DNA of 60,129 nucleotides from a bacterium (GCA_030698495.1 JAUYKA010000007.1:1-60129); one strand, 5' to 3'; positions 5,377 through 59,823 are shown, numbered from the stretch's first letter. Translations and numbers: made by a program. Notes: a model not told the origin generated them from the letters alone.

Positions 5377-5422
5377 GGAGTTTTATAAACCTAGCTAAGC
5401 ACGGTAAGAAGGATAACTATGA

Positions 5423-6001: not shown

Positions 6002-6006
6002 AAGAA

Positions 6007-6369
6007 TTATGGATTAGCCAGAAGAGTTTTTAGGGTAGAGATTATCAAGAAGGACACCCCGACGACGACAACACCGATAATGGCATAAAAAATAATTTTT
6101 TTAGCCTTGGCGGCTTTGTTTTCGTCACCCAGAGAAGCAATATACATGATGCCGCCCCAGATTAGCGCGGCCAGGGCGATAATGGCGACTAGGGACAACA
6201 GCCAGTTGATGGCATTGCCGATAACGGTGATGGCGTCCAGTTCCGGTAACCCGAAGTTTAATTTATCGATACCCAGATTAGTTTGCGCAAAAACATCGCC
6301 GGCGGCAGATTCCAGAAGCGCAAGTACTGTAGTGGGGATGATGAATTTTTTAATTTTGGAAAAAGACAT
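6007..6369 (-). CDS. VirB2/TrbC-like pilin-family protein
   Basis: 120 aa with a signal peptide and the core WGGIMYIASLGDENKAAKAKKIIFYA plus a TM helix. Confidence 0.7.
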   Translation of the reverse strand: MSFSKIKKFIIPTTVLALLESAAGDVFAQTNLGIDKLNFGLPELDAITVIGNAINWLLSLVAIIALAALIWGGIMYIASLGDENKAAKAKKIIFYAIIGVVVVGVSFLIISTLKTLLANP

Positions 6370-6380
6370 AACTTATGAAT

Positions 6381-6767
6381 TTAGGGAGTGAAAATTTGTA
6401 ACATTTCGGTCAGTTCAATAATTATCGTGTAAGACAATGCGATGACAATAAGACCAACAATAGCCCAAAATATTATTTTTTTAGCGTGCTGGACGCGATT
6501 ATCGTCGCCTAGTGAAACAACATACATTATTCCTCCCCAAATCAGAGCCAGGAGTGCCAGAAGGCCGACCAGGCCGAGAAGCCAGTTAATAATGTTCTGC
6601 AAAAATAGCTCGATTTTAGTGACACTACCTAATGGATTAGTAAAGCCACTAGAAGATCCTGGCCCGCCTGGATCAACTACTGGTCCTGCCAAAACTATAT
6701 TTGAAGTCGTAATAAGGAAAAAAAACAAAGAAAAAAAGATGATACTGACAATACGTGTAGGTTTCAT
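6381..6767 (-). CDS. VirB2/TrbC-like pilin-family protein
   Basis: 128 aa with the core WGGIMYVVSLGDDNRVQHAKKIIFWA. Its start overlaps the stop of the upstream SBP gene as ATGA. Confidence 0.7.
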   Translation of the reverse strand: MKPTRIVSIIFFSLFFFLITTSNIVLAGPVVDPGGPGSSSGFTNPLGSVTKIELFLQNIINWLLGLVGLLALLALIWGGIMYVVSLGDDNRVQHAKKIIFWAIVGLIVIALSYTIIIELTEMLQIFTP

Positions 6768-8620: not shown

Positions 8621-8653
8621 ATTGGTTATCTGCTAATAGAATAGCATAAAAAA

Positions 8654-8786
8654 GCGAGAACAGTGAAGACAGTAAATACAGCGAGTACAGTAAATTAAGT
8701 AAATACAGTTACGACTACGACGACTATAAAATAGTAAATGCAGCTACTGTATTTACTGAATTTACTATTCTTGCTGTATTTACTGA
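8654..8786. repeat. Word-built intergenic palindrome, 'TAAATACAG' dialect
   Basis: The left arm is made of GTGAAGACAG / TAAATACAG / TAAATTAAG words and the right arm of their complements (CTGTATTTACTGAATTTAC...). Copies of the same dialect occur at 27247, 36079 and 57434. Confidence 0.7.
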
Positions 8787-13883: not shown

Positions 13884-13910
13884 GTGGTTGATTATGTTAT
13901 CATGTTTTAC

Positions 13911-13975
13911 TGGGTCGGAGCGGCGGGATTTGAACCCACGATCCCACTGCGCTAAAGCTACGCGGGACGAGAATA
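13911..13975 (-). pseudogene. Truncated tRNA-Pro-like copy (T-arm, 3' acceptor strand and part of the D region; no anticodon arm)
   Basis: 29 nt (GGTCGGAGCGGCGGGATTTGAACCCACGA) are identical to the 3' part of the tRNA-Pro gene 103 bp away. No 5' acceptor strand is present. Confidence 0.55.
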
Positions 13976-14159: not shown

Positions 14160-14396
14160 AAGGAAACGGATATTAGAAAGGTCGCTTACGCGACCGTTCA
14201 GTAGCCCTTCGAACCGACTCGCTGTTGCGAGTCTCTCTCAGGGTTCTTTGAAACAAGGAAACGGATATTAGAAAGGTCGCTTACGCGACCGTTCAAAGTA
14301 GCTCTTCGACTCCATGGCCTGTTGGCCATGTCGCTCAGAGTTCTTTGAATCAAGGAAACGGATATTAGAAAGGTCGCTTACGCGACCGTTCAAAGA
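14160..14396 (-). repeat. About 96-bp tandem repeat (2.5 units) of a structured element between tRNA-Ala and tRNA-Pro
   Basis: The block AAGGAAACGGATATTAGAAAGGTCGCTTACGCGACCGTTCA starts at 14160, 14255 and 14352. The intervening segments are homologous and their hairpin stems differ by compensatory changes. Confidence 0.85.
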
Positions 14397-21270: not shown

Positions 21271-23259
21271 ATGCAGTACGAATATTGGGTGATTGGCGCG
21301 GCTGTGCTGGCGCTGGCGTATGCGGCCTGGCAAGCGCGGTTAATTGCTGTCAAGCAAGTAACTGATAAAAAGGCCGGCGAAATTGCTCAAGCGATCAGAG
21401 AAGGGGCGATGGCTTTTCTGGCGCGCGAATATCGAGTGCTGGCGATTGTGGTGGTGATTGTGGCTTTTTTGATGTGGCTGACACGCTTTGTTGGATCAAC
21501 CGAGCAAACTATCGCGCCGCAGACAATTATGGCGTTTATAATCGGTGCAGTGCTGTCGGTGGCGGCCGGTAATATGGGAATGAGGATAGCTACGCTGGCT
21601 AATGTTAGAACAGCGGAAGCAGTTAAAAAGAGTATGGGCAACGGCTTGGCGGTGGCCTTTTCTTCGGGAGCCGTAATGGGGATGACAGTGGTTGGTCTGG
21701 GACTACTTGGCGTTACGCTGTTGTGGCTTTGGTTTGGTAATCCCACTTTAATTTACGGATTTGGTTTTGGCGCGTCAGCGGTTGCTCTGTTTGCCCGAGT
21801 AGGCGGCGGAATTTACACCAAGGCGGCTGACGTGGGCGCTGATTTGGTCGGAAAGATAGAACAGAACATACCGGAAGATGATCCTAGAAATCCGGCGGTA
21901 ATTGCTGATAACGTAGGTGATAATGTCGGCGACGTGGCCGGTATGGGCGCTGATCTGTTTGAAAGCTACGTGGATACGTTAATTGCCGCTATGGTACTGG
22001 GACTAGTGGCGTTGCCTACTTTTGGCAGTTACGGCGTTATCTATCCTTTGGGCTTGGCGGCAATCGGCATTATAGCCAGCTTGGTTGGTGTTAACGCGGT
22101 GCGTACCAATGATGAAAGTAAGATTAGCAGCAGTTTCAATCGCGGTATTTTTCTAGCCGGAGGCTTAATGGTTGTTGGTTCTTGGTTTTGGACAAATTAT
22201 TTGTTCCGGGCACTGCCTCTGTTTTGGACGGTAGTTACAGGATTAGTGGCGGGCATTATTATCGGATTAGTTACGGAATACTACACGAGTCACGATAAGG
22301 CGCCAACACGTCAAGTGGCGCACGCGGCTAAAACCGGAGCGGCTACGAACATTATCAGCGGCTTGTCGCTGGGAATGTTTTCTACGGCAGTGCCGGTTTT
22401 AGTAGTAGCGGCCGCGATATTAATCTCTTATTGGCTGGCGGGTATTTACGGTATTGCCATTGCGGCTGTGGGAATGTTATCGACGCTGGGAATTACACTG
22501 GCGAGCGATACTTACGGTCCGGTGGCCGATAACGCGGCAGGCATTGCGGAGATGGCCGGTATGGGGGAAGAAACCAGAAAGAGGGCGGAGTCTTTGGACG
22601 CAGTTGGAAACACCACGGCGGCTATCGGTAAAGGCTTCGCGATAGGATCGGCGGCACTGACAGCCTTGGCATTGTTAGTCAGTTATATAACAGTAGCGAA
22701 GATAGGCAGCGTTGATGTAATCCATCCTAAAGTGATGGTGGGGTTGTTTATCGGCGGCGCTTTACCTTTTTTGTTTTCCGCTTTCTCGATGCAAGCGGTC
22801 GGCAAGTCGGCAATGAAAATGGTTGAGGAAGTACGCCGACAATTTAAAGAAATTCCCGGATTGATGGCGGGTACGGCCAAGCCGGATTATAAGAGAAGCG
22901 TGGACATTGCCACGACAGCGGCTCTGCATGAGATGGTTCTTCCGGGAATATTGGTGATTGCCGTGCCGATTGTGGTTGGCTTTACGTTGGGAGCAGAAGC
23001 TTTGGGCGGACTTTTGGCCGGCAGTATTGTGACGGGGTTCCTGCTGGCAGTAATGATGGCAAATGCCGGCGGAGCCTGGGATAACGCGAAGAAATATATA
23101 GAAGCGGGTAATTTGGGCGGCAAGGGATCAGATACGCATAAGGCAGCGGTTATAGGCGATACGGTTGGCGATCCGTTTAAGGATACGTCGGGACCGAGCC
23201 TGAACATTCTGATTAAGTTAATGTCCATTGTGGCGTTGATTATAGCGCCGCTGTTGTAA
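21271..23259 (+). CDS. hppA: Membrane-bound proton/sodium-translocating pyrophosphatase
   Basis: 662 aa, polytopic, with the motifs [27 protein letters not shown] and [11 protein letters not shown]. Confidence 0.93.
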
Positions 23260-23377
23260 ATGCAAAATGCAAAAATCAAAAATCAAAATGATATTTTAAA
23301 ATTTGCATTGTCGTAAAAATAATATTTTTTATTTGTCATTTTGCGTTTTGCAGTTTACATTTTGAATTACTGTATTT

Positions 23378-25715: not shown

Positions 25716-27245
25716 ATGTCAGTAGTGTTTATAATTTTGGCCGCAGTAGCTGCGGCCGTACTTGGCGCGGTAGGCGGATACGCTTTTCGGCGACAGTATG
25801 GCGCCAGGCAAGCACAGTCGCTTGAACAAAAAATTGAGCACAAGCTCAAAGCGGCTAAGGAAAAATTAACGGAATTACGCCAACAGGCCGAGAAGGAAAC
25901 GGCTAAATTCCGTGCGGACAGCGAACAAGAGTTGGACAGGCGCCGTAAGCAAATTATAGAGCTGGAGCAAAGAGTGGCGGATCGCGAGGAACAGCTGTCG
26001 GCCAAGCTGGAGCAAATAGAGAAAGAAGACCGCGAGATTAAAGAACATACCCAGAACCTAAAAACCAAGGAAGAAAAACTGGATAGCTTGCGAGCGGAAG
26101 AGGAGAAAAAAATGGCGGAGATTTCAGGGCTAACCAGCGATCAGGCGGCTGCCAGAGTGATGGAGTTGGCTGAACAGCGTACTAAAGAGGAGATTGTGCG
26201 GCGGGTGCGTAAAATGGAACAGGAAGGCGAAAAGCAACTGGAAGAAAAAGCTAAGGGGATTTTGGCTACCATTATTCAGCGCTATGCTTCTTCCCATGTG
26301 GCGGAAACAAGCACGTCGCACGTGACGGTTAACGACGAAAGTATGATTGGTCGGGTTATAGGAAAAGAAGGGCGTAATATTCAGCACCTGGAACGCCTAA
26401 CGGGCTGTGAAATAATTATCGACGAGGCGCCGAATTCGATTACTATTTCCTGTTTTTCGCCGATAAGGCGGCAGGTGGCAAAGAACGCCCTGGAACAGCT
26501 GTTGCGTGATGGGCGCATTCATCCGGGCCGGATTGAAGAAGTGGTAGAGGAAGCTAAAAAACATATTAACGAGGATATTCGTGAAGCCGGCGAAGCGGTG
26601 GTTTATGATCTTGGTATTATCGATTTCCCGGAGAAGCTGGTACAGCTTTTGGGGCGATTAAAATACCGCACCAGCTACAGGCAAAATATGCTCAAGCACA
26701 GCTGGGAAGCGGCGCACATTGCCACTATGCTGGCGGAAGAGCTGGGAGCGGATCCGATGATTGCTAAGAAGGCGACATTGCTGCACGATATCGGCAAAGC
26801 GATTGACCATGACGTGGAAGGCACCCATGTGGAAATAGGCGAGAAAGTAATGCGCAAATTCGGCATTGATGAGAAGATAATAAGAGCGGCATCGGCACAC
26901 CATGGCGACTACCCGTTTGATACAGCCGAGGCTATTATCGTACAAGTGGCAGACGCGGTGTCGGCGGCGCGGCCGGGAGCCAGGCGGGAGAGTTTGGAAC
27001 AATATGTTAAACGAATGGAAGATTTGGAAAATATCGCGACGGCTCAACCGGGGGTGGAAAAGGCGTATGCCATTCACGCCGGCAGAGAAATTCGGGTTTT
27101 TGTGACGCCAACAGAGATAGATGATTTGGCAGCGATAAAGATGGCGCAGGAAATAGCCCGGCAGATTGAGGCGGAAATGACTTATCCGGGGGATATAAAG
27201 GTTAATGTTATTAGGGAGACACGAGCGGAAGCGAAAGCGCGCTAA
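25716..27245 (+). CDS. rny: Ribonuclease Y
   Basis: N-terminal TM helix, a long coiled coil, a KH domain (GRVIGKEGRNIQ) and an HD domain (LLHDIGKA...). Confidence 0.92.
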   Translation: MSVVFIILAAVAAAVLGAVGGYAFRRQYGARQAQSLEQKIEHKLKAAKEKLTELRQQAEKETAKFRADSEQELDRRRKQIIELEQRVADREEQLSAKLEQIEKEDREIKEHTQNLKTKEEKLDSLRAEEEKKMAEISGLTSDQAAARVMELAEQRTKEEIVRRVRKMEQEGEKQLEEKAKGILATIIQRYASSHVAETSTSHVTVNDESMIGRVIGKEGRNIQHLERLTGCEIIIDEAPNSITISCFSPIRRQVAKNALEQLLRDGRIHPGRIEEVVEEAKKHINEDIREAGEAVVYDLGIIDFPEKLVQLLGRLKYRTSYRQNMLKHSWEAAHIATMLAEELGADPMIAKKATLLHDIGKAIDHDVEGTHVEIGEKVMRKFGIDEKIIRAASAHHGDYPFDTAEAIIVQVADAVSAARPGARRESLEQYVKRMEDLENIATAQPGVEKAYAIHAGREIRVFVTPTEIDDLAAIKMAQEIARQIEAEMTYPGDIKVNVIRETRAEAKAR

Positions 27246-27246
27246 T

Positions 27247-27364
27247 CAGCGAGGACAGTGAATACAGTAAATACAGCAAGGTCAGCCCATTAATATATTG
27301 AGGGGCGAGGAAAGTGAATACAGTGACTGTATTTACTGAATTTACTGTATTTACTGTTCTCGCT
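27247..27364. repeat. Word-built intergenic palindrome, 'TAAATACAG' dialect
   Basis: CAGCGAGGACAGTGAATACAGTAAATACAG ... CTGTATTTACTGAATTTACTGTATTTACTGTTCTCGCT, between rny and nfo. Confidence 0.7.
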
Positions 27365-27375
27365 ATTATTTAGAT

Positions 27376-28332
27376 ATGGCAAAGTATCAGAGAATAGGGT
27401 TGCATGTGTCGGCAGCGGGAGGGGTAGAGAACGCGCCAGAGCGCGCAAAAGAGCTGGGCGCAGAGTGCTTTCAGTTTTTCTCGCGCAGTCCGCGGGGCGG
27501 CAAGGCACCGGAGATCGGCGATGAACAAGCACGGCAATTTCAAGAACGATGCGAGAAATACGGTATGGCCAGCTATATTCATACACCCTATTACATAAAT
27601 TTCGCGTCGAAAAAAAACAGCTTGGCCAAGGCGGCGCCGCGGATTGTGCGGGAGGAATTGGAGCGTGGCAGTAAGTTGGGGGTTAAGTACGTGATGACGC
27701 ATTTGGGAAGCGCGCGAGACTGGGACAAAGACAATTTTCAATCTTCCAGCCGTCGCTTAGGAGCTATGGCCGGCGCGGCAATTTCCAATTTCCAAAAACC
27801 GCGGAATGCTTTGAATCAGGTTATTGCTGGTTTGAAGGAAATATATAGTGATTGGCCCCCCGCCGCTTCGCCTACGGCGAAGACTATGGGGGGCGATAAG
27901 AAGTTCTTTACAGAACTTCTTATCGAGATATCGGCGGGGGCCGGGGCGGTTATCGGCGATTCTTTCGAGGAACTCGGATATATCCTGAAAGAGCTGGGTC
28001 GAAGCGATGTGCATGTTTGTTTGGATACCTGCCATATGTTTGCTTCCGGGTATGATATTCGTACGGTTGGAGCGATAGATGAAACCATGCGGCAATTTCA
28101 TAAACACATTGGCATAAACCGATTAAAGCTAGTGCATGTTAATGATTCCAAGGCCGATTTGGGAGAGCATAAGGACAGGCATGAACATATCGGCAAAGGA
28201 AAAATAGGTGAGGCGGGATTTAAGGTGTTGCTGGCACATAAGGATTGGCAAAAGGTTAATTTTATTTTGGAGACAAAACACGATAGTTTGATAAAACATG
28301 ATATGCAGTTTTTGAAGGAGAATAGGAGATAA
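27376..28332 (+). CDS. nfo: Endonuclease IV (AP endonuclease) carrying two in-frame repeat insertions
   Basis: 318 aa with GLHVSAAGG, THLGS, EISAGAG, CLDTCHMFASGYD, VHVNDSK and ILET. The HLGS-to-EISAG spacer is roughly 35 aa longer than in E. coli Nfo as I recall it. Confidence 0.88.
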   Translation: MAKYQRIGLHVSAAGGVENAPERAKELGAECFQFFSRSPRGGKAPEIGDEQARQFQERCEKYGMASYIHTPYYINFASKKNSLAKAAPRIVREELERGSKLGVKYVMTHLGSARDWDKDNFQSSSRRLGAMAGAAISNFQKPRNALNQVIAGLKEIYSDWPPAASPTAKTMGGDKKFFTELLIEISAGAGAVIGDSFEELGYILKELGRSDVHVCLDTCHMFASGYDIRTVGAIDETMRQFHKHIGINRLKLVHVNDSKADLGEHKDRHEHIGKGKIGEAGFKVLLAHKDWQKVNFILETKHDSLIKHDMQFLKENRR

Positions 28333-28411
28333 ATCAAAATGCAAAAATCAAAATGCAAAATGACAAATTAAAATTCAAAAAGATTACTCCGACATATCAG
28401 GTAATTCAAAT

Positions 28412-29100: not shown

Positions 29101-29814
29101 ATGGGTAGGAGATGGCCAAGACTAAAGAGAGCAGAAAATCAGAAGTGGACGGTGGATTTGGCTTATGCTTGCGGTCTTCTGGCTACGGACGGTTCTTTAT
29201 CCAAAGATGGCCGACATATAAACTTGACCTCAAAAGATATCGAACAATTAGAAACATTCAAGCGCTGTCTTGGGCTAACAAATAAGATTGGCTGGAAAAT
29301 AAGCGGGTATACCGGAAAGATGAATTCGCAAGTTCAATTTGGAAATGTTGTTTTATACAGATGGTTGGTTTCGATAGGTATTGGCCCTCATAAAACAAAA
29401 AGTATTGGCGTTGTGAGGATTCCTGATGAATATTTTTTTGATTTTCTGCGGGGTGAATTTGATGGAGATGGATCCTCTCATGCTTATTGGGATACGCGTT
29501 GGCATAGTAGTGTTTCGTTATATATTCAGTTTGTCTGTGCTAGTAAGTGCCATTTAGAGTGGCTACGTACCACCGTTTTTCGTTTAATTGGGTCACGTGG
29601 CGTAATGGGCAAAAGCCGTAGTATTTTTCAATTAAAATTTGCGAAGACACAAGCGCTTCCTTTGTTTGAATCTATGTATTACAGCGGAGATATCCCATAT
29701 TTATCTCGAAAGAAAGAAAAATTAGATCGTCAATGGACGGCATTAAAACAGTCCAAATTGGGAATACTCCCCGAAGGATTTAATCGTAATGGTTCAATTA
29801 TCAAGATAGCTTGA
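29101..29814 (+). CDS. LAGLIDADG homing endonuclease (double-motif)
   Basis: 237 aa with the motifs LAYACGLLATDGS and FLRGEFDGDGS. It ends 35 nt before tRNA-Leu(GAG). Confidence 0.8.
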   Translation: MGRRWPRLKRAENQKWTVDLAYACGLLATDGSLSKDGRHINLTSKDIEQLETFKRCLGLTNKIGWKISGYTGKMNSQVQFGNVVLYRWLVSIGIGPHKTKSIGVVRIPDEYFFDFLRGEFDGDGSSHAYWDTRWHSSVSLYIQFVCASKCHLEWLRTTVFRLIGSRGVMGKSRSIFQLKFAKTQALPLFESMYYSGDIPYLSRKKEKLDRQWTALKQSKLGILPEGFNRNGSIIKIA

Positions 29815-35006: not shown

Positions 35007-35012
35007 GGAAAA

Positions 35013-35038
35013 CAGCCCCTTAATCAGGGGCTGTTTTT
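35013..35038. terminator. Intrinsic terminator
   Basis: CAGCCCCT-TAATC-AGGGGCTG-TTTTT, 7 nt after the stop at 35006. An A-run on the other side allows bidirectional use. Confidence 0.7.
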
Positions 35039-35045
35039 AAGTAAT

Positions 35046-35235
35046 GTTTTTCTCGCCGGGTGATGCTTCTCGCGATACCTACTCTTGGCGGCATACTTGT
35101 CCAGCCCAGCGGCTGGACTGCGCTCGACTAAAAGCCTGCCGCTCCGCCCTCTAGGCGGAGACCATGCCGGCAGGCTTTTAGACGACCGCCGAGAGTAGGC
35201 ACCGCGAGCATCACCCGACGCCCCGTTCTGTCTCA
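35046..35235. ncRNA. Candidate structured RNA/element 'L1' (three-way junction; homolog at 53731-53920), strand unresolved
   Basis: A long closing helix pairs 35056-35091 with 35186-35220. It encloses hairpin A (TCCAGCC-CAGC-GGCTGGA), the conserved single-stranded GCGCTCGACT and a 50-nt hairpin B. The stems covary with the second copy. Confidence 0.45.
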
Positions 35236-35336
35236 AAAAACAATACCGATAATTAGGTTAGATAGGTGAAGTTGTTATTAATTTCATAACACTCTCACGC
35301 TGGCAGAGAAGAGAGAAGGGGAGAGAGGAGTGGGTA

Positions 35337-35365
35337 TTGACGGATTTTGATATGTGTGATACAAT
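35337..35365 (+). promoter_or_regulatory. Strong sigma70-like promoter with extended -10, TTGACG-17 nt-(TGA)TACAAT
   Basis: TTGACG lies at 35337-35342 and TG-A-TACAAT at 35357-35365. Confidence 0.6.
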
Positions 35366-35373
35366 GAAGATGT

Positions 35374-35401
35374 AGCTTGATTCATCCCAATCAAGCTTTT
35401 T
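35374..35401 (+). promoter_or_regulatory. 5'-proximal stem-loop plus U-run directly after the predicted transcription start
   Basis: AGCTTGATT-CATCCC-AATCAAGCT-TTTT begins about 2-3 nt after the expected +1. The layout matches 34222-34255. Confidence 0.45.
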
Positions 35402-35464
35402 AGTACCTGGGGTTGACCGCATTAGGGCGGCGCCTTAAAGGGAAATGTTCTTCTTCGTGACTAT

Positions 35465-36082
35465 ATGAATAACCACCCGTCGGGGGTTAAACGAATAGGA
35501 GATTATCTGGCTGCCTTCTGGAAGGCGGTGCGCGAGATGTCTTGGGACACGTTGCATCTTATTCCTGTGGCGGCTTTTTTGTTTGTCAGTAGTGTGCCGA
35601 GTGAGTCTCTGGCTTTCGCGGAACAAGTGGAGTTAGCCCAGAAGCCTTTGATTTTTGAGCGCGATCCCAGCCTGGCCAGTACGGCGATTGTCGGGATTGA
35701 GGCTTGGCCGAAACAGCGTACGGCAGGAGGAGTGCTGGGATCCGGTGTTTCCCGCATACCCGACGCGGCTAAGGAGATTAAAGAAGGCACGGCAATTCGG
35801 GTGTTGTCCACGGCGTATTCTTCTACTTACGATCAAACCGATGCTAATCCTTGGGGGACAGCTTCCGGGACACGCGTACATATGGGCACAATGGCAGCCA
35901 ATTTTCTGCCGTTTGGCACCAAGGTGAGAATCGGCAACACGGTCTATACGGTGGAGGATCGCCTGAACGCGCGCTATAACGGGAAATATATCATTGATAT
36001 CTGGCAGCCTAGTCGGGAAGCGGCGTTGAGGTATGGCGTGCGTGTGGTGGAGATAGAAGTTGTATCGGTGCCATCAGAGTAA
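35465..36082 (+). CDS. 3D-domain (MltA/YabE-like) cell-wall-active protein
   Basis: 205 aa. The C-terminal sequence STAYSS...DANPWGTASGTRV..GT.AAN.LPFGTKVRIGN.VYTVEDR...IDIW is typical of 3D domains. An alternative start lies at 35537. Confidence 0.72.
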   Translation: MNNHPSGVKRIGDYLAAFWKAVREMSWDTLHLIPVAAFLFVSSVPSESLAFAEQVELAQKPLIFERDPSLASTAIVGIEAWPKQRTAGGVLGSGVSRIPDAAKEIKEGTAIRVLSTAYSSTYDQTDANPWGTASGTRVHMGTMAANFLPFGTKVRIGNTVYTVEDRLNARYNGKYIIDIWQPSREAALRYGVRVVEIEVVSVPSE

Positions 36083-36156
36083 ATACAGTAAATTAAGTAA
36101 ATACAGTGAATACAGTTGCTGTACTCGCTGAATTTACTGTATTAACTGTACTCGCT
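36079..36156. repeat. Word-built palindrome, 'TAAATACAG' dialect, overlapping the stop codon of the 3D-domain gene
   Basis: G-TAA-ATACAGTAAATTAAGTAAATACAGTGAATACAG ... CTGAATTTACTGTATTAACTGTACTCGCT. The TAA stop at 36080-36082 is part of the first word. Confidence 0.7.
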
Positions 36157-36224
36157 GGTATGGCCTTGCTATTTTCGTGATATTCGCTATACTTGCTTTT
36201 ACCTTTAGCTAATAGTGCTCTGAT

Positions 36225-37313: not shown

Positions 37314-37368
37314 ATAAAACTTATAGGGTATACGTTTAGGATTATGAATAATGTACTATTACCTTTTA

Positions 37369-37377
37369 TGGTATAAT
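37369..37377 (+). promoter_or_regulatory. Extended -10 element TGG-TATAAT, 7 nt upstream of the HNH gene's ATG
   Basis: TG lies at 37369-37370, TATAAT at 37372-37377 and ATG at 37384. This implies a leaderless transcript. Confidence 0.45.
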
Positions 37378-37383
37378 TTAAAG

Positions 37384-37863
37384 ATGGGTAGTCGAAGATC
37401 TTGGACAGCTAGCCAACTTAAAAGCGCTGTAAAAACATCATTGAGTTACCGTCAAGTAATAGAAAAACTTGGTCTTCGCCCAGCGGGTGGTAATTATTAT
37501 CAACTTCAAAAGTATGTTAAGGAATATGGACTTGATACTTCTCACTTTAAGGGTAGCGCTTGGAATAAGGGGTTGAAAGGAATTGGGAAGCCGCGTATAA
37601 AGATTAAAGATATCTTAGTTAAGGGAAGTACTTTCCAAAGCTATAAGCTAAAACAAAGGCTATTTAAAGAAAATCTTAAGCCTCAAAAATGTGAAATTTG
37701 TGGCTGGTCAGAACGAACATCTACTGGTCATTTGCCACTTGAAGTTGATCATATTAATGGTGATAGAACAGATCACAGGCTTAAAAACCTGAGAATTCTT
37801 TGCCCTAATTGTCACAGTTTGACTCCTAACTATAGATATCGTAGAGGTAAGAGTAAAAAATAA
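37384..37863 (+). CDS. HNH homing-type endonuclease
   Basis: CEICGW...LEVDHINGDRTDHRLKNLRILCPNCH (an HNH/zinc motif). The ORF could extend to 37351, but the -10 box lies inside that extension. It ends 3 nt before tRNA-Leu(TAA). Confidence 0.8.
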   Translation: MGSRRSWTASQLKSAVKTSLSYRQVIEKLGLRPAGGNYYQLQKYVKEYGLDTSHFKGSAWNKGLKGIGKPRIKIKDILVKGSTFQSYKLKQRLFKENLKPQKCEICGWSERTSTGHLPLEVDHINGDRTDHRLKNLRILCPNCHSLTPNYRYRRGKSKK

Positions 37864-37948: not shown

Positions 37949-38157
37949 CAGTGATCCGTACCCCATAAAGTAGACACGGAGGTACAATGTCCATGATTTC
38001 TTTTGTTAGAATTAATCATTAACAAAAGAACATGAGAACAATATTTTCAAATAAACAAATCGCGCGGTTAAAAAAGAATCCGTGCGTATGGCACGTTAGC
38101 GAACGCTCGATTACATCAATCGCAACCGCGCGGCGTAAGAAAACGCAAAAGGTAAAA

Positions 38158-38463
38158 CTAAAAATGCAAAACTATGGCATCGCCTTTGGCGATCTCTTGA
38201 AAATTAGATAATTTAGCGCTTTGGTTGGTTAAGAGTTGCTTGGCTGTTTTGGCACGAGGTAAGCGGTATAGCTTAAGTGTTTTGGTGTTGAAGGGCAGTT
38301 TTACGCGCAGGAGATAAATTGATTTATCGTCCCATTTTTCCCATAGTTCTACGCCTTTTTCACGGGTTTCGGTTGAAAAAATATCAAGCAGACGATCGTC
38401 TTTTTCGACGCGCACATAATCGTTGATGAAAAGTGATTTTAACAGACTGATGTAAGTGGTCAT
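38158..38463 (-). CDS. Hypothetical protein
   Basis: 101-aa ORF with no recognisable motif. It is followed upstream by a palindromic spacer. Confidence 0.4.
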   Translation of the reverse strand: MTTYISLLKSLFINDYVRVEKDDRLLDIFSTETREKGVELWEKWDDKSIYLLRVKLPFNTKTLKLYRLPRAKTAKQLLTNQSAKLSNFQEIAKGDAIVLHF

Positions 38464-47517: not shown

Positions 47518-47528
47518 GGGCACATTAT

Positions 47529-47644
47529 AAACGCAAAACGTAAAACGAAAAATGCAAAGGAACAATATAAAACCCAAAAGAACGACGGCGTTATTTTATT
47601 TTTTCTTGTTGTTTTTAGTTTTGCGTTTTAAGTTTTTCGTTTTC
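47529..47644. repeat. About 115-bp palindromic element, 'AAAACGCAAAA' dialect
   Basis: AAACGCAAAACGTAAAACGAAAAATGCAAA...AAAACCCAAAAGAACGAC...TTTGCGTTTTAAGTTTTTCGTTTT. Homologous copies lie at 56041-56152 and 56636-56757. Confidence 0.75.
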
Positions 47645-48889
47645 CTATTCGTGTCTTAAGGCGTCAATGGGGTCCTTTTTGGCGGCCTGGCGGGCGGGAT
47701 AGAGTCCAAAGAGCAAGCCTACACTAACAGCCATACCAACGCCAAGAGCGATAGCCCCGAGGGGGATCGTCAATGGCCAGTCCAGGTTGTATTGCGTACG
47801 GATGACGACGACTATCAGCAAGGAAATACTTATGGCGATAATCGTGCCAATCAGTCCGCCGGAGAAGGTGAGAAAAACGGCTTCGAGCAGAAACTGCTGC
47901 ATAATATCGCGTTGGCTGGCGCCGACGGCTTTGCGTAAGCCGATTTCCTTTATTCTTTCCGTGACGGAGACCAACATAATATTCATAATACCCACACCGC
48001 CGACCAGTAGGGAAATGGCGGCGATGGAAACCAGAAAAATAGTCAGAACTTGAGTGACGGTGCTGATGCGATCAACAATGTCCTGCTGGGTTAAAACAAA
48101 GAAGTCATCTTTGGCGGGGTCGGTAATGTTGTGCATCTCGCGCAGCGTGGCTTTGACGTCGGCGGCTACTTGATTGATGTCGGCGCCGGGTTTGGCTTTG
48201 GCAATAACTTCCTGAAAGTAATCGATGCCGAGAATTTCTTTTTGAGCGGTGGTGTAGGGCAGAATGACGATATCGTCCACGTTAAATCCGGACAATTGTC
48301 CGGTTTTGGGCAAAACGGCCACTACCCGCATTTTTTGCTGATGAACGGTGACCAGCTGATTAATAGCGGGGGATTCGCCGAATAATTGGTCTTTGACGTG
48401 CCAGCCGATGATGGCTACTTTGGCGTTTTGCTTGATGTCATCGTTAGTAAAATAGCTGCCGGTAGCAGGATAGATATTAAATATTTCCGCCATGGCATCG
48501 GCGGTCCAACCAAAAATGAGGGGGCGGAATATGTTGTTTTGGTAAGAAACGTTACCGGGAACAATAACGGCCGGATCAATAGAGGCAAGCCCGGGGACAT
48601 TATTGGGGTTAGAGAGAGCTATTATGTCTTTGTCTTTCAAACTATCGGAGTAAACGGTATTGGCGATGTCGGCGGCCCCGGTGGGCTGACGGCCGGGGCG
48701 AATCACCAGAGCGTTGCCGCCAATACTTTCCACCTGGCTTAAGATAAGACTCTGCGCTCCCTGACCGATGGCGACAACAAGAACAATGGCGACAATACCA
48801 ATGACAATGCCAAGGATTGTCAGCAGAGAGCGCCCCAGGTTTCCCCGGAGGGCAGCTAGAGCGGTTTTGGCGGCAATAGATAGTCTCAT
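47645..48889 (-). CDS. ABC transporter permease, MacB/FtsX family
   Basis: 414 aa with an N-terminal TM helix, a large extracytoplasmic domain and a C-terminal FtsX-like 3-TM bundle. Confidence 0.88.
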   Translation of the reverse strand: MRLSIAAKTALAALRGNLGRSLLTILGIVIGIVAIVLVVAIGQGAQSLILSQVESIGGNALVIRPGRQPTGAADIANTVYSDSLKDKDIIALSNPNNVPGLASIDPAVIVPGNVSYQNNIFRPLIFGWTADAMAEIFNIYPATGSYFTNDDIKQNAKVAIIGWHVKDQLFGESPAINQLVTVHQQKMRVVAVLPKTGQLSGFNVDDIVILPYTTAQKEILGIDYFQEVIAKAKPGADINQVAADVKATLREMHNITDPAKDDFFVLTQQDIVDRISTVTQVLTIFLVSIAAISLLVGGVGIMNIMLVSVTERIKEIGLRKAVGASQRDIMQQFLLEAVFLTFSGGLIGTIIAISISLLIVVVIRTQYNLDWPLTIPLGAIALGVGMAVSVGLLFGLYPARQAAKKDPIDALRHE

Positions 48890-53612: not shown

Positions 53613-53730
53613 AGAATATTTTAAGCGTTAGTTTAGCCTACCTTAAATGATAGCGTATGGGTAGGATGTGCGTCGAGAATGCCCCAAAGTGAGGATAAAA
53701 TCAAGGGGATTTGTGTTCTGGGCTAGCATA

Positions 53731-53920
53731 GTTTTTCTCCGGCGGGGAAATTCTGCCCTCTATCATTTTTTACTTCTGGCGGCACACTTGCTCGCCCCAG
53801 CGGCGAGCCGCGCTCGACTCACGGCCTTGCCACTTTGCCCATAAGGCAAAGACCAGGCTGGCAAGGCCGTGAGACGGCCGCCAAGAGCAAATACAGCTAA
53901 CACCACCCGCCGTGTTAGTC
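53731..53920. ncRNA. Candidate structured RNA/element 'L2' (homolog of 35046-35235), strand unresolved
   Basis: It has the same three-way junction as L1: GGCGGC/GCCGCC closing helix, hairpin A CTCGCC-CCAGC-GGCGAG, the conserved GCGCTCGACT and hairpin B CACGGCCTTGCCA...TGGCAAGGCCGTG with a conserved ACCAGGC bulge. Confidence 0.45.
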
Positions 53921-53984
53921 CATAATTAACCTAGAGAATTTGTTCCCTTAGATTTTATTGGGAGGAGAAGAGGGGAGAAACGGC

Positions 53985-54620
53985 TCAGGCGACGCTTGAG
54001 CCGTTTGTAGGGGCTTTTTTGGGGGTGGCGGCTGTGTTGGTCGGGGTAAGGGATTTAATGGTGCCGTCGGGGTTTAGGTTGGTTTCGATAATGACTATTT
54101 CACCTTTATCTTGGCCGGGGAGGGTTAGGTCTTGGCCGGCCAGTTTGGCGAGTTGTTGGAGCCAGCCGGAGTGGGTGACGCAGGCTACGGTCATATTGGG
54201 GTAGCGGTTAGCCAGTTCTTTTAGGGTTTGCTTAACGCGCCGGACGACGTCTTCATCAGACTCGCCGCCGAGCGGACGGTAGTCGTATTCGGTTTGATGT
54301 CTGGTTTTTTGAAAATCGGCCGGCGTGGCTGACCAGCGCATGCCTTCGTAGAAACCCAGGTTTTTTTCGCGCAGGAGAGGTTGATTGGCTTCTTTTATAC
54401 CGGACGGAAAAAATTTGGCTAATATGTGACTGGTTTCTTGAGCGCGGGCTAAATCGGAAGAGAGTAATAGTTGAACTTTTTGGGCGCGCAGCAGGGGCGC
54501 CACGGCGGCGGCGTAGCGTTCGGTTTGGGGCGGGAGAATAGTGCCGTGGTGTTGGCCAAGCAGGCGTCCTTCCTGGGATTCGAGCGTGGGACCGTGGCGA
54601 AGGAAAAATACATTAGTCAT
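53985..54620 (-). CDS. Histidine phosphatase (phosphoglycerate mutase-like) family protein
   Basis: The sequence starts FFLRHGPT (the RHG motif) and has a downstream His in VTHSGW. Confidence 0.78.
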   Translation of the reverse strand: MTNVFFLRHGPTLESQEGRLLGQHHGTILPPQTERYAAAVAPLLRAQKVQLLLSSDLARAQETSHILAKFFPSGIKEANQPLLREKNLGFYEGMRWSATPADFQKTRHQTEYDYRPLGGESDEDVVRRVKQTLKELANRYPNMTVACVTHSGWLQQLAKLAGQDLTLPGQDKGEIVIIETNLNPDGTIKSLTPTNTAATPKKAPTNGSSVA

Positions 54621-54869: not shown

Positions 54870-55625
54870 ATGAAGACACAGACACCTACGTTTAAATATG
54901 AGCAGCAGTATTGGCAACAGGGGATTGATTTGATTGCCGGGGTTGATGAGGTGGGGATGGGGGCGCTGGCGGGACCTGTTTGTGCTGCCGCCGTAATATT
55001 TGGCAGCGGCAAAACGCAAAACGCATCCCCCGTCGCTAAAGCTATGGGGGACAAGGAAATCAAAAGGCAAAATATTGGTATCCCGCTTACGCGGGACAAG
55101 ATTTTCATTAGAGATAGCAAAACTTTGTCGGCTAAACAGCGAGAGATGGCGGAGAAGTGGATTCGTGAAAATGCTTTGGCTTGGGCGGTGGGGGAGGCTT
55201 CGGTGGAGGAGATTACGGTTTTGAATATTCGCCGGGCGTCGCATTTGGCGATGCGGCGGGCGGTTGACGCGCTGTCTCAAAAGCCGGAGATGTTGTTGGT
55301 TGACGGCAATCCGGCACAGCCGCATGAGACAGTACCGAGCGTTAATATTCTGGACGGAGATGCTTTGTCTTTTTCAATAGCGGCGGCGAGTATTGTGGCG
55401 AAAGTCTATCGGGATAATCTAATGGTTGAGCTGGATAAGAAATATCCGGCGTATGGGTTCGCGGCACATAAGGGTTACGGCAGTCAGTTTCATTTGGGGG
55501 CGTTGAAAGAACACGGCGCGTGCGCAATTCACCGGCCGACTTACGCGCCCATAGCAAAACTTAAAAGGCAAAACGAATCCCACTTCGCCCCGCCCAAGGC
55601 TGGGCTACGCGGGACAAGAAACTAA
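54870..55625 (+). CDS. rnhB: Ribonuclease HII carrying in-frame repeat insertions
   Basis: GVDEVGMGALAGPV, DSKTLS, SIVAKVYRD, GYGS..H and HRPTYAP. The ATG at 54870 is 4 nt after tRNA-Arg. About 27 extra aa sit between the AAVIF and DSK motifs. Confidence 0.88.
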   Translation: MKTQTPTFKYEQQYWQQGIDLIAGVDEVGMGALAGPVCAAAVIFGSGKTQNASPVAKAMGDKEIKRQNIGIPLTRDKIFIRDSKTLSAKQREMAEKWIRENALAWAVGEASVEEITVLNIRRASHLAMRRAVDALSQKPEMLLVDGNPAQPHETVPSVNILDGDALSFSIAAASIVAKVYRDNLMVELDKKYPAYGFAAHKGYGSQFHLGALKEHGACAIHRPTYAPIAKLKRQNESHFAPPKAGLRGTRN

Positions 55626-55782
55626 AAACAACAAGATAAAACTTAAAAGAGACTGCTGTGACGCGGTTTTTTCTTGCCTAGGGTTGACGAAATTGCTTGG
55701 TTGTTATAGTTTCTATAAATCGTCCTGCGATAGCAGGACTCCAATATTTTGCATTTTGATTTTTGAATTTTAAATTTGTTTT

Positions 55783-56040
55783 ATGGCCGTTCCCAAGAAG
55801 AAAACCTCAAGAACCAAGCGCAACATGCGGCGCAGCCATCACGGCCGAAGCCGGTTGCAGTTGTCGACTTGTCCGCGCTGTCATTATACTGTGCCGGCGC
55901 ATACGGCTTGTCCAAATTGCGGCACTTATCATGGCCGGGAAGTTATTGACGTACTGAAGAAGCTGGAGAAGAAGGAGCGCAAGGCTAAGGAGAAGGAATT
56001 GGAAGAGCAGGAGCACGAACACGAGCACAACGAAACGTAG
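55783..56040 (+). CDS. rpmF: 50S ribosomal protein L32 with a Glu/Lys/His-rich tail
   Basis: MAVPKKKTSRTKRNMRRSH... with a C-x2-C...C-x2-C zinc ribbon. Confidence 0.9.
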   Translation: MAVPKKKTSRTKRNMRRSHHGRSRLQLSTCPRCHYTVPAHTACPNCGTYHGREVIDVLKKLEKKERKAKEKELEEQEHEHEHNET

Positions 56041-56152
56041 AACTAAAAACTAAAAGTGAAAAACTATAACCTAAAACCCAAAAGAACGACCACGACATTG
56101 TTTTGAGTTTTTAGTTGTTCTTTTGCATTTTTCGTTTTGCCTTTTACGTTTA
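56041..56152. repeat. About 115-bp palindromic element, 'AAAACGCAAAA' dialect
   Basis: It shares the central AAAACCCAAAAGAACGAC block and the right arm TTTTGCATTTTTCGTTTTGCCTTTTACGTTT with 47529-47644. Confidence 0.75.
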
Positions 56153-56197: not shown

Positions 56198-56635
56198 ATG
56201 GCCAATCGTCACTTAAGCCGTTCTGTAGCGTTGCAGGCCCTGTTTGAATGGGACTTTAAGGGCAAGGCTAAAGGCCAGCTTAAAGAAGTGGCAAAACGTG
56301 TCGTGGTGGATTTCGCGCCGGGCATGGACGGTACCGACTTTTTGTACGATCTGCTGTTCGGGGTGGAAAAAAACCTGAAGAGTATTGACGGACTGATTAC
56401 TAAGTCAGCGCCGGATTGGCCGCTGGAGCAAATAACCAATGTCGATCGCAATGTGTTGCGCATCGGTATTTATGAGCTGAAGTTCGGCGGCAGCGATGAC
56501 GTGCCGCCGAAGGTGGCGATAAACGAAGCGATTGAGCTGGCGAAAACATTCGGCGGCGCCAGTTCGGGAAAGTTCGTTAACGGCGTGCTGGGAACGATCT
56601 ATAAGGAGATGGGAGAGCCACGTAAAAATGAATAG
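56198..56635 (+). CDS. nusB: Transcription antitermination factor NusB
   Basis: 145 aa with R..A.QALF..DF... and LRIGIYEL...[17 protein letters not shown]. Confidence 0.88.
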
Positions 56636-56757
56636 AAAAACGTAAAAGGTAAAACGAAAAATGCAAAAGAACAACATAAAAATCAAAAGTTTTACGACGG
56701 TAATGTTTTAGGTTTTGAGTTGTTATTTTTCGTTTTTCGCTTTAAGTTTTTAGTTTT
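56636..56757. repeat. About 120-bp palindromic element, 'AAAACGCAAAA' dialect
   Basis: AAAAACGTAAAAGGTAAAACGAAAAATGCAAAAGAACAAC...GTTGTTATTTTTCGTTTTTCGCTTTAAGTTTTT. Confidence 0.75.
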
Positions 56758-56758
56758 T

Positions 56759-57442
56759 ATGCCAGATTTATCGGAATTAGAAAAAACACTGGGGGTTGAA
56801 TTCAAGAACAAGGATTTAGTGGAAACGGCGCTGACGCATCGTTCTTATTTAAATGAGAATCCGAGGTTTAACCTGCCGCATAACGAGCGGCTGGAGTTTT
56901 TGGGCGACGCGGTGCTGGAATTGATTGTGACGGATCACCTTTATCATCACTACAATTTACCGGAAGGAGAGTTAACTAATTTGCGGGCGGCGGTGGTACG
57001 CGGAGAAATGTTATCGGTGGTGGCGGAGGAGCTGGGCCTTGACGATTTTCTGCTTCTTTCGCGCGGGGAAAAGAAAGATACGGGTAAGGCCAGACAATAT
57101 ATTTGGGCTAATGCAGTGGAAGCGGTGATTGGCGCGATATATTTGGATGCGGGATATGAGGCGGCCGCCGGGTTCATAGAAAGAAATATTATTAAGAGGC
57201 TGCCGGAAGTAATAGAGCAGGGATTGCATATTGACAGCAAAAGCAAGTTTCAGGAATTGGCACAGGAAAAATATCGCGCAACGCCTTCTTATAAGGTTTT
57301 GAGTGAAGAGGGTCTGGATCACGCCAAACAGTTTGTGGTTGGTGTTTTTGTCGGTAAGGAACAGATGGGAGAGGGTAAGGGGACCAGTAAACAAGAGGCA
57401 CAGCAGAATGCGGCGAAAGAAGCGTTGGAGAAGATACAGTGA
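56759..57442 (+). CDS. rnc: Ribonuclease III
   Basis: The signature NERLEFLGDAVL and a C-terminal dsRBD (GKGTSKQEAQQNAAKEAL). The ATG at 56759 is preferred over the longer ORF. Confidence 0.92.
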   Translation: MPDLSELEKTLGVEFKNKDLVETALTHRSYLNENPRFNLPHNERLEFLGDAVLELIVTDHLYHHYNLPEGELTNLRAAVVRGEMLSVVAEELGLDDFLLLSRGEKKDTGKARQYIWANAVEAVIGAIYLDAGYEAAAGFIERNIIKRLPEVIEQGLHIDSKSKFQELAQEKYRATPSYKVLSEEGLDHAKQFVVGVFVGKEQMGEGKGTSKQEAQQNAAKEALEKIQ

Positions 57443-57506
57443 ATTCAGTAAATACAGTAAATTAAGTAAATACAGCCGCTGAATTTACTGTTTTTACTGT
57501 ATTCAC
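57434..57506. repeat. Word-built palindrome, 'TAAATACAG' dialect, overlapping the rnc stop codon
   Basis: ATACAG-TGA-ATTCAGTAAATACAGTAAATTAAGTAAATACAG...CTGAATTTACTGTTTTTACTGTATTCAC. Confidence 0.7.
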
Positions 57507-57519
57507 TTAAAATAAGGCA

Positions 57520-59823
57520 ATGCAGTTACTGGAACTTGAAGTAGTTGGTTTCAAATCCTTCGCAACAAGAGCGCGGCTGAAATTTGGTCCCGGCATTACG
57601 GCGGTTATCGGACCGAACGGCAGCGGCAAAAGCAATCTGGCGGAAGCGGTGCGTTGGGTGCTGGGAGAGCAGTCGTTGAAGTCATTGCGCGGGCGTAAAA
57701 CAGAGGACGTTATTTTTTCCGGCAACGATAAACGGCGCGGCAGCGGCCAGGCCAGAGTGTCTTTGCTATTAAGTAATGAAGTAAAAAGAATGACGGTGGA
57801 GGCGGAGGAAGTTGATTTGACCCGCTTGGTTACCCGGTCGGGGGACAGCGAATATTTATTGAACGGCGATCCGATGCGACTGGTTGATATTCAACAAATG
57901 CTGGCGGAGGCCGGGTTAGGCACAAAGAGTTATTCAGTGATATCACAAGGCACGGTTGATCAATATTTAACAGCATCGCCGACGGCGAGGCGGGAATTGT
58001 TTGATGAGGCGTGCGGCATTAAAAGCTTACAGATAAAAATGCGCCGGGCCGAGCAGAAGCTGGCGCAGGCTGATTTGCGTATTCACGATTTACAAACGGT
58101 TTTGCAAGAGCTGGAGCCAAAATTGAAAGTGTTGAGACGGCAGGCCAAGCGGCTGGAGCAAAGAGAGGATACAGCTAAGCGATACGAACGAGCGCAGGCG
58201 GGCTGGTATCGGCAAGCGTGGCACGAAATGGCGGCGGCGGTACAGAGAGTGCAAAGCCAGGCGGAAGAAGATGAGCAAAAACTGGCCGTGGCCAGGCAGG
58301 AGCGCAAAAAAGCGGAAGCGGCGTTATTCGCAGCTTTGACAGCGGGGGAAGAGAACAAAGAAGCTTCGTTATGGCAGAGGCGGCAGACACTGGAACAGGA
58401 GTTATTGCAAGCAGAGCAAGAATACGAGAGAAATACACGACTGTATGAACAAAACAAAGAGCAGAAGCGTGAGTTGACGGCATCGTTGGAGCAAGTGCGA
58501 CAAGCTTTAAGGAGCGCGCAGCAAAAACTGGCACGAGCGCGGGAGGAGGTACGGCAGGATGACATTATGTCCTTTATCGGCCAGCTGCTGCGCCGTTGTC
58601 ACAGTGCCTTGGCGTCCTGGCTGGCCGGTAATCAGCCGGACAGCGATGATATCAGACAATTGAACAACCAACTGGCACAAGCAATGGAGCAGTTGAACAG
58701 TGAGGGAACTAGCGTGGCAGCGGCACAGACATTAATGCGAAAATTGGAAGAGCCGTTGCAGGCGGTAGCGCGTTTGCAGGCAGTGGAACACGAGAGGCAA
58801 GCGCAGTTAAAAAAAATACCGCAGCTAATGCCGCCGGATCATGGAAGGCTAGTGCAATTGCGACGAGTGTATGAATCCGCCGACACAGGCCAGGATGGCT
58901 GGGAAGCCAAGAAGCTGGAAAAACTATTAGCACAGTCTAGAGACGAGGAGTTGTTGGCCGAAAGGAACAACAGTGCCGGCGCGGCGGCTATGAGCCAGGC
59001 ACGCGGGGAGCTGGCGGCGCTGGAGAGCGAAATCAGGCGAGAGCGAGGCACACAGTTTTTAGTTGAAACACAGCACAGCATACCCGACAAAGAAGATTTG
59101 GCAACCAGTCAGGAATTGGTGCGGCGTTTGTCGGCTAGGTTGGCGGCGCTAGGCGAGCCGGATCCGTTAATCGCACGGGAATATCAAGAGACAGCGGCCC
59201 GTTTTGCCGGACTGGAGAAACAGCGTGATGATATTTTGGCGGCAAGGCACAATACCGACAAACTTATTAAGTCGCTAAAGAGGGAGACGGAGCATAAATT
59301 CCGTCAGCAGTTTGCCGCTATCCAAAAAGCTTTTCAGGATAATTTTACCAGGCTGTTTGGCGGCGGAGCGGCTCAACTTGAGATTGTCGATTGCACTGTT
59401 GACGAGCTCGAAGAAGGGCAGACAGAGGAGGCGGAAAGCAGACCGGTGCAGGGCATAGAGATAATGGCACATCCGCCCGGTAAGCGCCCCCGACATATTA
59501 ATTTGCTATCCGGCGGAGAGAAAGCGCTGACTTCTTTGGCTCTGCTGTTAGCGATACTGCAGGTGCAAAAACCGCCGTTTTTGGTGCTGGATGAAGTTGA
59601 TGCCGCGCTGGATGAGGCAAATTCGGTGCGTTTCGGCGGGATGCTGAAATTGATGAGCGAGCACACACAATGCGTGGTTATTACCCATAACCGGGCAATT
59701 ATGGCGGAAGCGGACGTATTGTATGGGGTCACAATGGGGGGAGATGGGGTTTCTAAGGTTTATTCGGTGAAAATGGCGGATATAGAGGAGGCGGAAGAAT
59801 TTAGTGAGACAATGGAAGTTTAA
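57520..59823 (+). CDS. smc: SMC-family chromosome segregation ATPase, unusually short (767 aa), no recognisable hinge
   Basis: Walker [10 protein letters not shown], the C-terminal [16 protein letters not shown] signature, Walker [12 protein letters not shown] and ...LYGVTM. The middle part is continuous coiled-coil-like sequence. Confidence 0.85.

Follow-up and report, generated by a model that had tools for sequence, protein, structure and literature searches.

The host and the gene neighbourhood of the two copies

The window, by which we mean the whole stretch of 60,129 nucleotides analysed here (GCA_030698495.1, JAUYKA010000007.1:1-60129), belongs to a Candidatus Andersenbacteria chromosome in which a lineage-restricted, non-coding structured element occurs twice. 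The assignment to this lineage of the CPR/Patescibacteria comes from FtsH homologues, the nearest non-self FtsH being 75% identical. The genes of the window are those of an ordinary chromosome (gyrA, nusA, clpP, RNase Y, L19, ftsH, RNase III and SMC), and 13 tRNAs, tRNA-Ile(UAU) among them, were found at the Rfam gathering thresholds. A Pfam search of about 50 window proteins gave no reverse transcriptase, transposase, HUH nuclease or integrase. The GC skew is uniformly and strongly positive over the whole 60 kb (+0.09 to +0.27).

Copy 1 is flanked by two co-directional plus-strand genes, in the order terminator, element, promoter. On its left lie a 230-aa gene and a terminator (35017-35030, followed by a T-run; whole terminator region 35010-35036), and on its right the promoter TTGACG-17-TACAAT (35337-35365) and then a gene encoding a 205-aa DPBB-like protein. 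Copy 2 is placed between two co-directional minus-strand genes, those of a histidine phosphatase and then ftsH, after the histidine-phosphatase terminator (53980-54008) and before a conserved block upstream of ftsH that ends at about 53708. Both copies have one absolute orientation, so that at one of the loci the element is reversed with respect to the genes beside it, and on neither strand do both copies have a gene after them. An earlier note on this DNA had placed a terminator before copy 1 and a promoter after it, and had concluded that the element is not simply a UTR of its neighbours. Both signals were found, and since the orientation relative to the flanking genes is opposite at the two loci the element does not serve these genes as a UTR or leader. 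A riboswitch or other cis-acting leader was likewise rejected: the orientation upstream of genes is not constant, P1 is 39 bp long in copy 1, and the promoters of ftsH and of the 205-aa gene, which are conserved in relatives, stand between the element and the genes. The promoter of the 205-aa gene, along with a 9-bp hairpin and then U5 (35337-35402), is also conserved in the relative L022 (18816-18915, reverse strand), which stands at 75% FtsH identity, and this arrangement may represent a conserved leader or attenuator of the DPBB-like gene.

Several other repeats are present in the window. Four long intergenic hairpins (8648-8795, 27228-27375, 36062-36170 and 57418-57527), with arms of 40-60 nt placed just past gene 3' ends, are built of 9-nt periodic units (AGTAAATAC / GTATTTACT) and have fold z-scores of -5 to -9.6; they are a second, AT-rich family of palindromic intergenic repeats. 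Phased A-tract arrays (AAAAYGCAAAA, with a period of about 10-11 nt), often followed by a complementary TTTTGCRTTTT array, are spread over many of the intergenic regions, where they may form long AT hairpins or bend the DNA. Between tRNA-Pro and tRNA-Ala (14160-14393) there is a 97-nt unit in about 2.5 tandem repeats, which have the flanks and a TGTT loop in common. One internal hairpin stem of this unit is completely swapped and still paired (GACTCGC/GCGAGTC versus CATGGCC/GGCCATG), being the second case of a compensated stem here.

Free-standing genes encoding LAGLIDADG-like and HNH endonucleases (29101-29814, 37351-37863) directly adjoin tRNA genes. A tRNA-like fragment was found at about 13908-13972, and a 34-nt hairpin repeat stands beside several tRNAs (13939, 14875, 29949, 55023). 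The tRNA-like fragment and the hairpin repeat suggest turnover around tRNA loci. Five consecutive genes of the T4SS pilin family (PF18895, TrbC/VirB2-like) are located at 3786-6767, the first with four tandem pilin domains, and this region carries DNA repeats of 140-234 nt.

Shared fold and extent of the repeat unit

The single architecture that the earlier note had described for 35046-35235 and 53731-53920 is present there. The two copies align block for block and have the same predicted fold, which comprises a closing helix, a short hairpin A and a hairpin B of about 50 nt. On the plus strand the order common to both is GTTTTTCTC, a long 5' arm ending in GGCGGC, AYACTTG, hairpin A, GCGCTCGACT, hairpin B, AGACGRCCGCC and a 3' arm ending in CACCCGMCG (Table 1). 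Hairpin A has 7-8 bp and the loop CAGC, and hairpin B (50-52 nt) has an outer stem and an inner stem-loop as well as the 7-nt bulge ACCAKGC, which is on the 3' side. The CAGC loop, the 7-nt bulge and the AGACG-CCGCC sequence, all described as conserved, were found in both copies, and the end motifs CG(C/G)CGGG and CACCCG(A/C)CG are also common to them. As for GCGCTCGACT, the earlier description of it as invariant is correct, but it is not wholly single-stranded. Half of it is paired, its CG and CT pairing with AGACG across an A.A mismatch (U.U on the minus strand) and forming the base of hairpin B.

Predicted minimum free energy folds gave the same three-way junction from either copy folded alone and on either strand. 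For copy 1 the energies are -110.2 kcal/mol on the plus strand and -124.2 kcal/mol on the minus strand (z = -9.6 and -10.7), and for copy 2 they are -87.6 and -100.7 kcal/mol (z = -6.0 and -6.3); none of 200 shuffles folded as well as the real sequence. In copy 2 the outer helix is paired only at its two ends, whereas the core is fully paired. No complementarity for a loop-bulge pseudoknot was found by eye. A coding element was rejected, as the copies have no reading frame in common and the indels between them shift the frame; a protein search with a spurious 70-aa ORF overlapping copy 1 gave nothing.

Pairs were counted on alignment A4, which covers a core of 120 columns in two sequences. The hairpin B stems had been called completely different between the copies, which proved wrong: 30 of the 42 core pairs are identical, as are 88 of the 120 columns. 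Eight of the 42 pairs are changed on both sides. In the three hairpin helices there is no one-sided change and no broken pair, and in hairpin B of copy 2 an additional T:A pair is inserted, with one base on either arm. Overall 98.8% of the cells are paired, against 34-45% when the partners are slid by 1-3 columns. "Wholesale stem replacement" was therefore an overstatement, although the compensated stem differences and the conserved junction and bulge nucleotides on which it was based are there.

The extent of about 180 nt first given for the element was too short. On the plus strand the similarity extends rightward over an ATAATTA box, a GAAnTTGTT stretch and a G-rich polypurine tract. The tracts of the two units align with each other, and elsewhere between the genes of the window no purine run reaches 16 nt. 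As the similarity runs to this tract, the unit is about 255-290 nt long. Identity between the copies is 74% in the core (52% in shuffled sequence, sd 2%), 57-62% in the outer arms (49-52% shuffled) and 50% in the right tail (42% shuffled, z about 4); in the outside flanks it falls to 43-51% against 46-48%, which is chance. Target-site duplications, by which the earlier note had proposed to recognise a MITE origin, were searched for at the candidate boundaries of either copy, which are uncertain by about 20 nt, and no convincing direct repeat was found. Moreover the full unit does not end in inverted repeats. Copy 1 contains a near-perfect inverted repeat of about 39 bp, made of the two arms of its closing helix, and the homology between the copies runs about 110 nt past one side of it.

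Table 1. Coordinates of the two copies, of their parts and of the A-tract arrays in the window
Feature	Position	Strand	Basis or remark
Copy 1, whole unit	35044-35333	- (assigned from G.U bias only)	extended alignment; left box, long outer helix, core, AT-rich tail, polypurine tract
Copy 1, closing helix, 5' arm (plus-strand sense)	35054-35092	-	pairs with 35185-35221; all paired in the minus-strand MFE fold but one mismatch and one 3-nt bulge
Copy 1, closing helix, 3' arm (plus-strand sense)	35185-35221	-	folds
Copy 1, core	35080-35197	-	inner 12-13 bp of closing helix, hairpins A and B, junction; basis of covariance model R1
Copy 1, hairpin A	35099-35118		loop CAGC
Copy 1, junction GCGCTCGACT	35120-35129		
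Copy 1, hairpin B	35125-35184		inner hairpin 35142-35160; bulge ACCATGC 35161-35167
Copy 1, polypurine tract AGAGAAGAGAGAAGGGGAGAGAGGAG	35305-35330	.	right end of unit
Copy 2, whole unit	53729-53984	-	between ftsH upstream block and histidine-phosphatase terminator
Copy 2, outermost helix remnant CGGCGGG	53741-53747	-	pairs with CCCGCCG inside 53904-53912; pairing lost between remnant and core
Copy 2, core	53771-53889	-	closing helix 53771-53783 / 53877-53889
Copy 2, hairpin A	53790-53808	-	
Copy 2, junction GCGCTCGACT	53810-53819	-	
Copy 2, hairpin B	53815-53876	-	inner hairpin 53833-53851; bulge ACCAGGC 53852-53858
Copy 2, polypurine tract GGGAGGAGAAGAGGGGAGAAA	53960-53980	.	alignment with copy 1 tract
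Invariant block GGCGGC	35087-35092 / 53778-53783	+	alignment
Invariant block AYACTTG	35093-35099 / 53784-53790	+	alignment
Invariant block CCCAGCGG	35105-35112 / 53796-53803	+	alignment
Invariant block GCGCTCGACT	35120-35129 / 53810-53819	+	alignment
Invariant block ACCAKGC	35161-35167 / 53852-53858	+	alignment
Invariant block AGACGRCCGCC	35180-35190 / 53872-53882	+	alignment
ATAATTA box	35249-35255 / 53922-53928	+	similarity to the right of the core
A-tract arrays	23257-23376, 28329-28381, 38136-38171, 47528-47657, 55542-55777, 56032-56152, 56626-56757		

Occurrence in databases, relatives and independent assemblies

That the element belongs to no known RNA family, as had been proposed from the hallmark motifs of common families, agrees with the search of Rfam 15 by cmscan. 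No relevant match was obtained, the whole window giving only its tRNAs at the gathering thresholds, and at E<=10 the two loci gave only terminator-like or miRNA-like noise far below threshold. SRP RNA (for ACCAGG) and the cobalamin riboswitch (for GAGACC.GCC) were rejected on this account, the bulge also being on the wrong strand and a tetraloop hairpin being absent. A covariance model of the two copies (R1), the construction of which had been suggested along with the first description, finds only these two in the window when run by cmsearch with filters off. Copy 1 scores 135.8 bits (E 2.8e-28) and copy 2 135.2 bits (E 3.8e-28), and the next-best score in the 60 kb is 18 bits.

Motif scans of larger collections gave chance matches only. 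The pattern GCGCTCGACT N40-65 AGACGNCCGCC had 4 matches in IMG/VR, the same pattern preceded by CAGC N6-11 had 15 in the GTDB species genomes, CAGCGG N4-9 GCGCTCGACT N22-40 AGACCA had 44 in the JGI metagenomes, and CAGCGG N4-9 GCGCTCGACT had more than 120 in IMG/VR. The matches are mostly GC-rich and none has hairpin B; those of the first three scans (4, 15 and 44) reach at most 20 bits with R1. No match to the unit was obtained by blastn against phage and plasmid collections, and nothing relevant was found in the literature on non-coding RNAs of CPR or Andersenbacteria.

Relatives have much shorter spacers at both sites. Between the histidine phosphatase gene and ftsH the spacer is 372 nt here and 0-180 nt in six relatives; a seventh, L022, has RNase HII upstream of ftsH in place of the histidine phosphatase. 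A block TTGATTTT...GGCAYYCTC beside ftsH is conserved in the relatives and abuts the unit. At the site of copy 1 in L022, 11 nt separate the end of the homologue of the 230-aa gene from the same promoter and leader hairpin, in a spacer of 100 nt versus 458 nt here. With filters off, R1 has no match in 97 kb around ftsH and rplS of the seven relatives. As the sites are much shorter or empty in relatives, the unit is an insertion or a lineage-specific gain at both. The two copies are not the attL and attR of an island, the 18.7 kb between them being housekeeping sequence that is syntenic with the relatives.

The same organism, element included, was also found in the MAG GCA_034372665.1 and in the Logan assemblies of two runs. 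The sequence of copy 2 is present in an independent NCBI MAG (L005, 880-998), where R1 scores 119.9 bits. Against the window this sequence has three differences, which all lie in the same arm of hairpin B and all break pairs. They are probably assembly errors at the palindrome, real polymorphism being the other possibility, and were left out of the evidence. Short-read assemblies break inside the element, either in the hairpin B loop or at 35182 (L005, the start of L006, and the starts of L196 and L197).

Readings of the element and likeness to known systems

The probability that 16 independent substitutions would land as eight still-paired pairs is about 6e-11, and the pair pattern is therefore not the product of independent neutral decay. 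With two sequences the shuffle control has a floor of about 1/256 (3/500 observed) and covariation statistics have almost no power. Moreover, compensation can have a mutational origin. Hairpin-templated template switching leads to perfect compensation without selection, and three of the changed pairs are adjacent (AAAA/UUUU versus CACG/CGUG), two being transversion pairs. Since clustered changes and a paired insertion fit template switching, compensation alone is no proof of selection. However, the 7-nt bulge is kept at six of its seven positions, and such "repair" of a palindrome would tend to erase it. Junction and bulge positions differ at about 15% (counted on alignment A4), stem positions at 26%. 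In copy 2 the core is preserved and paired while the outer helix is largely lost, and this helix and the tails of the units have drifted almost to randomness, which argues for selection after arrival at the site. The simplest reading of these sequences thus appears to be purifying selection on the core fold at both sites. Of the initial view that this is a functional RNA and not a decaying repeat, the exclusion of independent neutral decay stands; the designation as an RNA family rests on two sequences, and the empty sites fit a MITE-like origin as well.

The minus strand folds 13-14 kcal/mol better than the plus strand in both copies. In the closing helix of copy 1 there are four minus-strand G.U pairs (A.C on the plus strand) against one plus-strand G.U pair, and the overall count is about six against two, a difference that is not significant (sign test, roughly p = 0.14-0.19). 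Given the GC skew, a leading-strand bias of C-to-T changes would favour G.T wobbles on the plus strand, opposite to what is observed. Because most transition mismatches read as G.U there, the selected strand is most likely that of a minus-strand RNA; on sequence grounds minus-strand RNA or single-stranded DNA is favoured, though not significantly. Upstream of either copy on the minus strand there is no convincing sigma-70 promoter. A TAATTAT box is common to both, without a -35 in copy 2, and a minus-strand terminator is weak after copy 1 and absent for copy 2. Promoter and terminator signals are ambiguous on both strands.

The best reading, which we hold with somewhat less than even confidence, is that the element is a new structured RNA of small size, which probably has the minus-strand sequence and came in through a duplication or an insertion. 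For at least one of the two sites this seems to have involved the module as a whole. Speculatively, the unit would have its own transcript, a small RNA of about 120-170 nt, and RNase III, the gene of which is at 56720-57442, could trim the closing helix of copy 1, which is long and perfect. Those unpaired nucleotides that are invariant, reading AGUCGAGCGC, CAAGURU and, in the bulge, GCMUGGU on the minus strand, might then be a docking surface for protein, and the role might be that of a protein-binding scaffold or decoy RNA and not of a base-pairing sRNA or cis-regulator. Counting against the small RNA are the number of copies, which is two, the lack of a convincing minus-strand promoter, the weak or missing terminator, a G.U bias short of significance, a pattern of compensation that template switching would also yield, and the fact that no candidate partner protein was identified. 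The absence at the syntenic sites and in 97 kb of the relatives fits a mobile repeat equally, and the presence of other families of long intergenic hairpins in this genome counts against the small RNA as well.

A non-autonomous mobile element of the MITE, foldback or REP-like kind is the main alternative, albeit on the whole an unlikely one. Copy 1 would be the younger insertion, with its inverted-repeat stem of about 39 bp intact, and copy 2 an older one or a variant; the fold would either be needed for single-strand mobilisation, as in IS200/IS605 ends, REP/RAYT and attC, or have no function for the host and stay palindromic through hairpin-templated repair. This would agree with sites that are both empty in relatives and with a unit fitting exactly between conserved blocks, and also with its being small, non-coding and intergenic, in a neutral gap between terminator and promoter and in an orientation unrelated to the neighbours. 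The near-perfect long inverted repeat of copy 1, the clustered compensated changes with a compensated base-pair insertion, the richness of the genome in other palindromic intergenic repeats and the breaking of public short-read assemblies inside the element point the same way. Nevertheless plausible boundaries have no target-site duplication, no inverted repeats stand at either end of the full unit, and the window encodes no transposase, HUH nuclease, integrase or reverse transcriptase. The 60 kb of the window contain only two copies, and the 97 kb from relatives contain none. Moreover the core is about 26% diverged, yet all the hairpin pairs are intact and the 7-nt bulge is conserved, and in copy 2 it is the core that has been preserved while the supposed inverted-repeat stem decayed.

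The two copies could also be the founding pair of an undescribed CPR class, either a small structured RNA or a folded single-stranded DNA, in which a self-contained three-way-junction module under selection for its fold spreads among intergenic sites with neither terminal repeats nor target duplications nor a linked enzyme. This proposal is a doubtful one; if it were true the class would be a new ribonucleoprotein RNA or a new structure-dependent mobile element. CPR/Patescibacteria have tiny genomes, and a fold-selected element of about 170 nt with invariant unpaired nucleotides would in such a genome be a candidate for a lineage-specific ribonucleoprotein RNA or a structure-dependent mobile module. 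To our knowledge almost no CPR non-coding RNAs have been experimentally characterised beyond the universal ones. The value of the finding is limited by there being two copies, one uncultivated lineage and no linked protein or pathway, and the element is a candidate for a catalogue of RNA families.

It seems quite improbable that the element is a cis-acting intergenic insulator in the manner of REP/BIME, the stable fold of which would, on DNA or on read-through RNA, block read-through or exonucleases. At both loci one gene's terminator and the promoter of the next gene, read in the same direction, do enclose the element. Either strand gives the fold, and other long hairpins stand at gene 3' ends in this genome. 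For a roadblock, however, a three-way junction is far too specific a structure, the unpaired strands being invariant and the bulge conserved, and a separate terminator is already present beside each copy. In the relatives spacers of 0-180 nt suffice for the same gene pairs. With one copy inverted the read-through RNAs would be complementary, yet it is on a single absolute strand that the unpaired sequences are conserved.

A divergent 6S-type RNA binding RNA polymerase, in two paralogues like the 6S-1 and 6S-2 of Bacillus, is very unlikely. Two 6S paralogues per genome are known in Firmicutes, and the element resembles 6S RNA (RF00013 and related families) in its size of about 170 nt, in paired ends that form a long closing helix, in an interrupted terminal helix, in its two copies and in a small minus-strand hairpin on the 3' side of the central region. 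It differs in having no open central bubble, the 5' side having at most 1-4 unpaired nt and thus no single-stranded template for a product RNA. In addition, no covariance model of the Rfam 6S clan matched at E<=10, the closing helix is decayed in copy 2, and the element is not conserved at the same sites in relatives, where R1 finds nothing. Chance resemblance or an assembly artefact, which the breaks of short-read contigs in hairpin B and the three differences in one arm of L005 might have suggested, is judged excluded by R1 scores of 135 bits against 18 bits for the next best in the window, by the recovery of the same sequences both from an NCBI MAG and from Logan assemblies of two runs, and by the compensation probability of about 6e-11.

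Among known systems, the msr-msd non-coding RNA of retrons is likewise of about 170 nt, with an inverted-repeat closing helix that encloses a short and a long hairpin. Unlike in retrons, no reverse-transcriptase gene is found downstream on either strand, the neighbour being the 205-aa DPBB-like protein or a convergent gene. A retron RNA was therefore rejected, the neighbouring ORFs being DPBB-like, FtsH and histidine phosphatase and the window having no RT domain. The Correia/NEMIS elements of Neisseria, the ERIC/IRU of enterobacteria, the RUP and BOX of pneumococci and REP/BIME are, like the present element, small, non-coding, intergenic and patchy among relatives, and they too form long hairpins through inverted repeats in orientations independent of the neighbours. 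The long stems of transcribed Correia elements are substrates of RNase III, and compensatory changes occur among ERIC copies. In contrast to these repeats the element here has no target-site duplication, no inverted unit ends, two copies and no cognate transposase, and in place of a simple hairpin it has a three-way junction with invariant unpaired strands and a 7-nt bulge, with the pairs intact at about 26% divergence. The hairpins of REP and IS608 are smaller, the element being 3-5 times larger and having a three-way junction, and no TnpA or RAYT is encoded in the window. Unlike integron attC sites, neither copy has R''/R' core sites (RYYYAAC ... GTTRRRY) at its ends, and no integrase is encoded in the window. 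With the attC, IS200/IS605 and REP hairpins, which are handled by HUH enzymes, the element nonetheless has in common that structure is kept while stem sequence varies; in those systems the recognition marks are conserved bases, extrahelical or bulged, and specificity for one strand is expected, as it is here.
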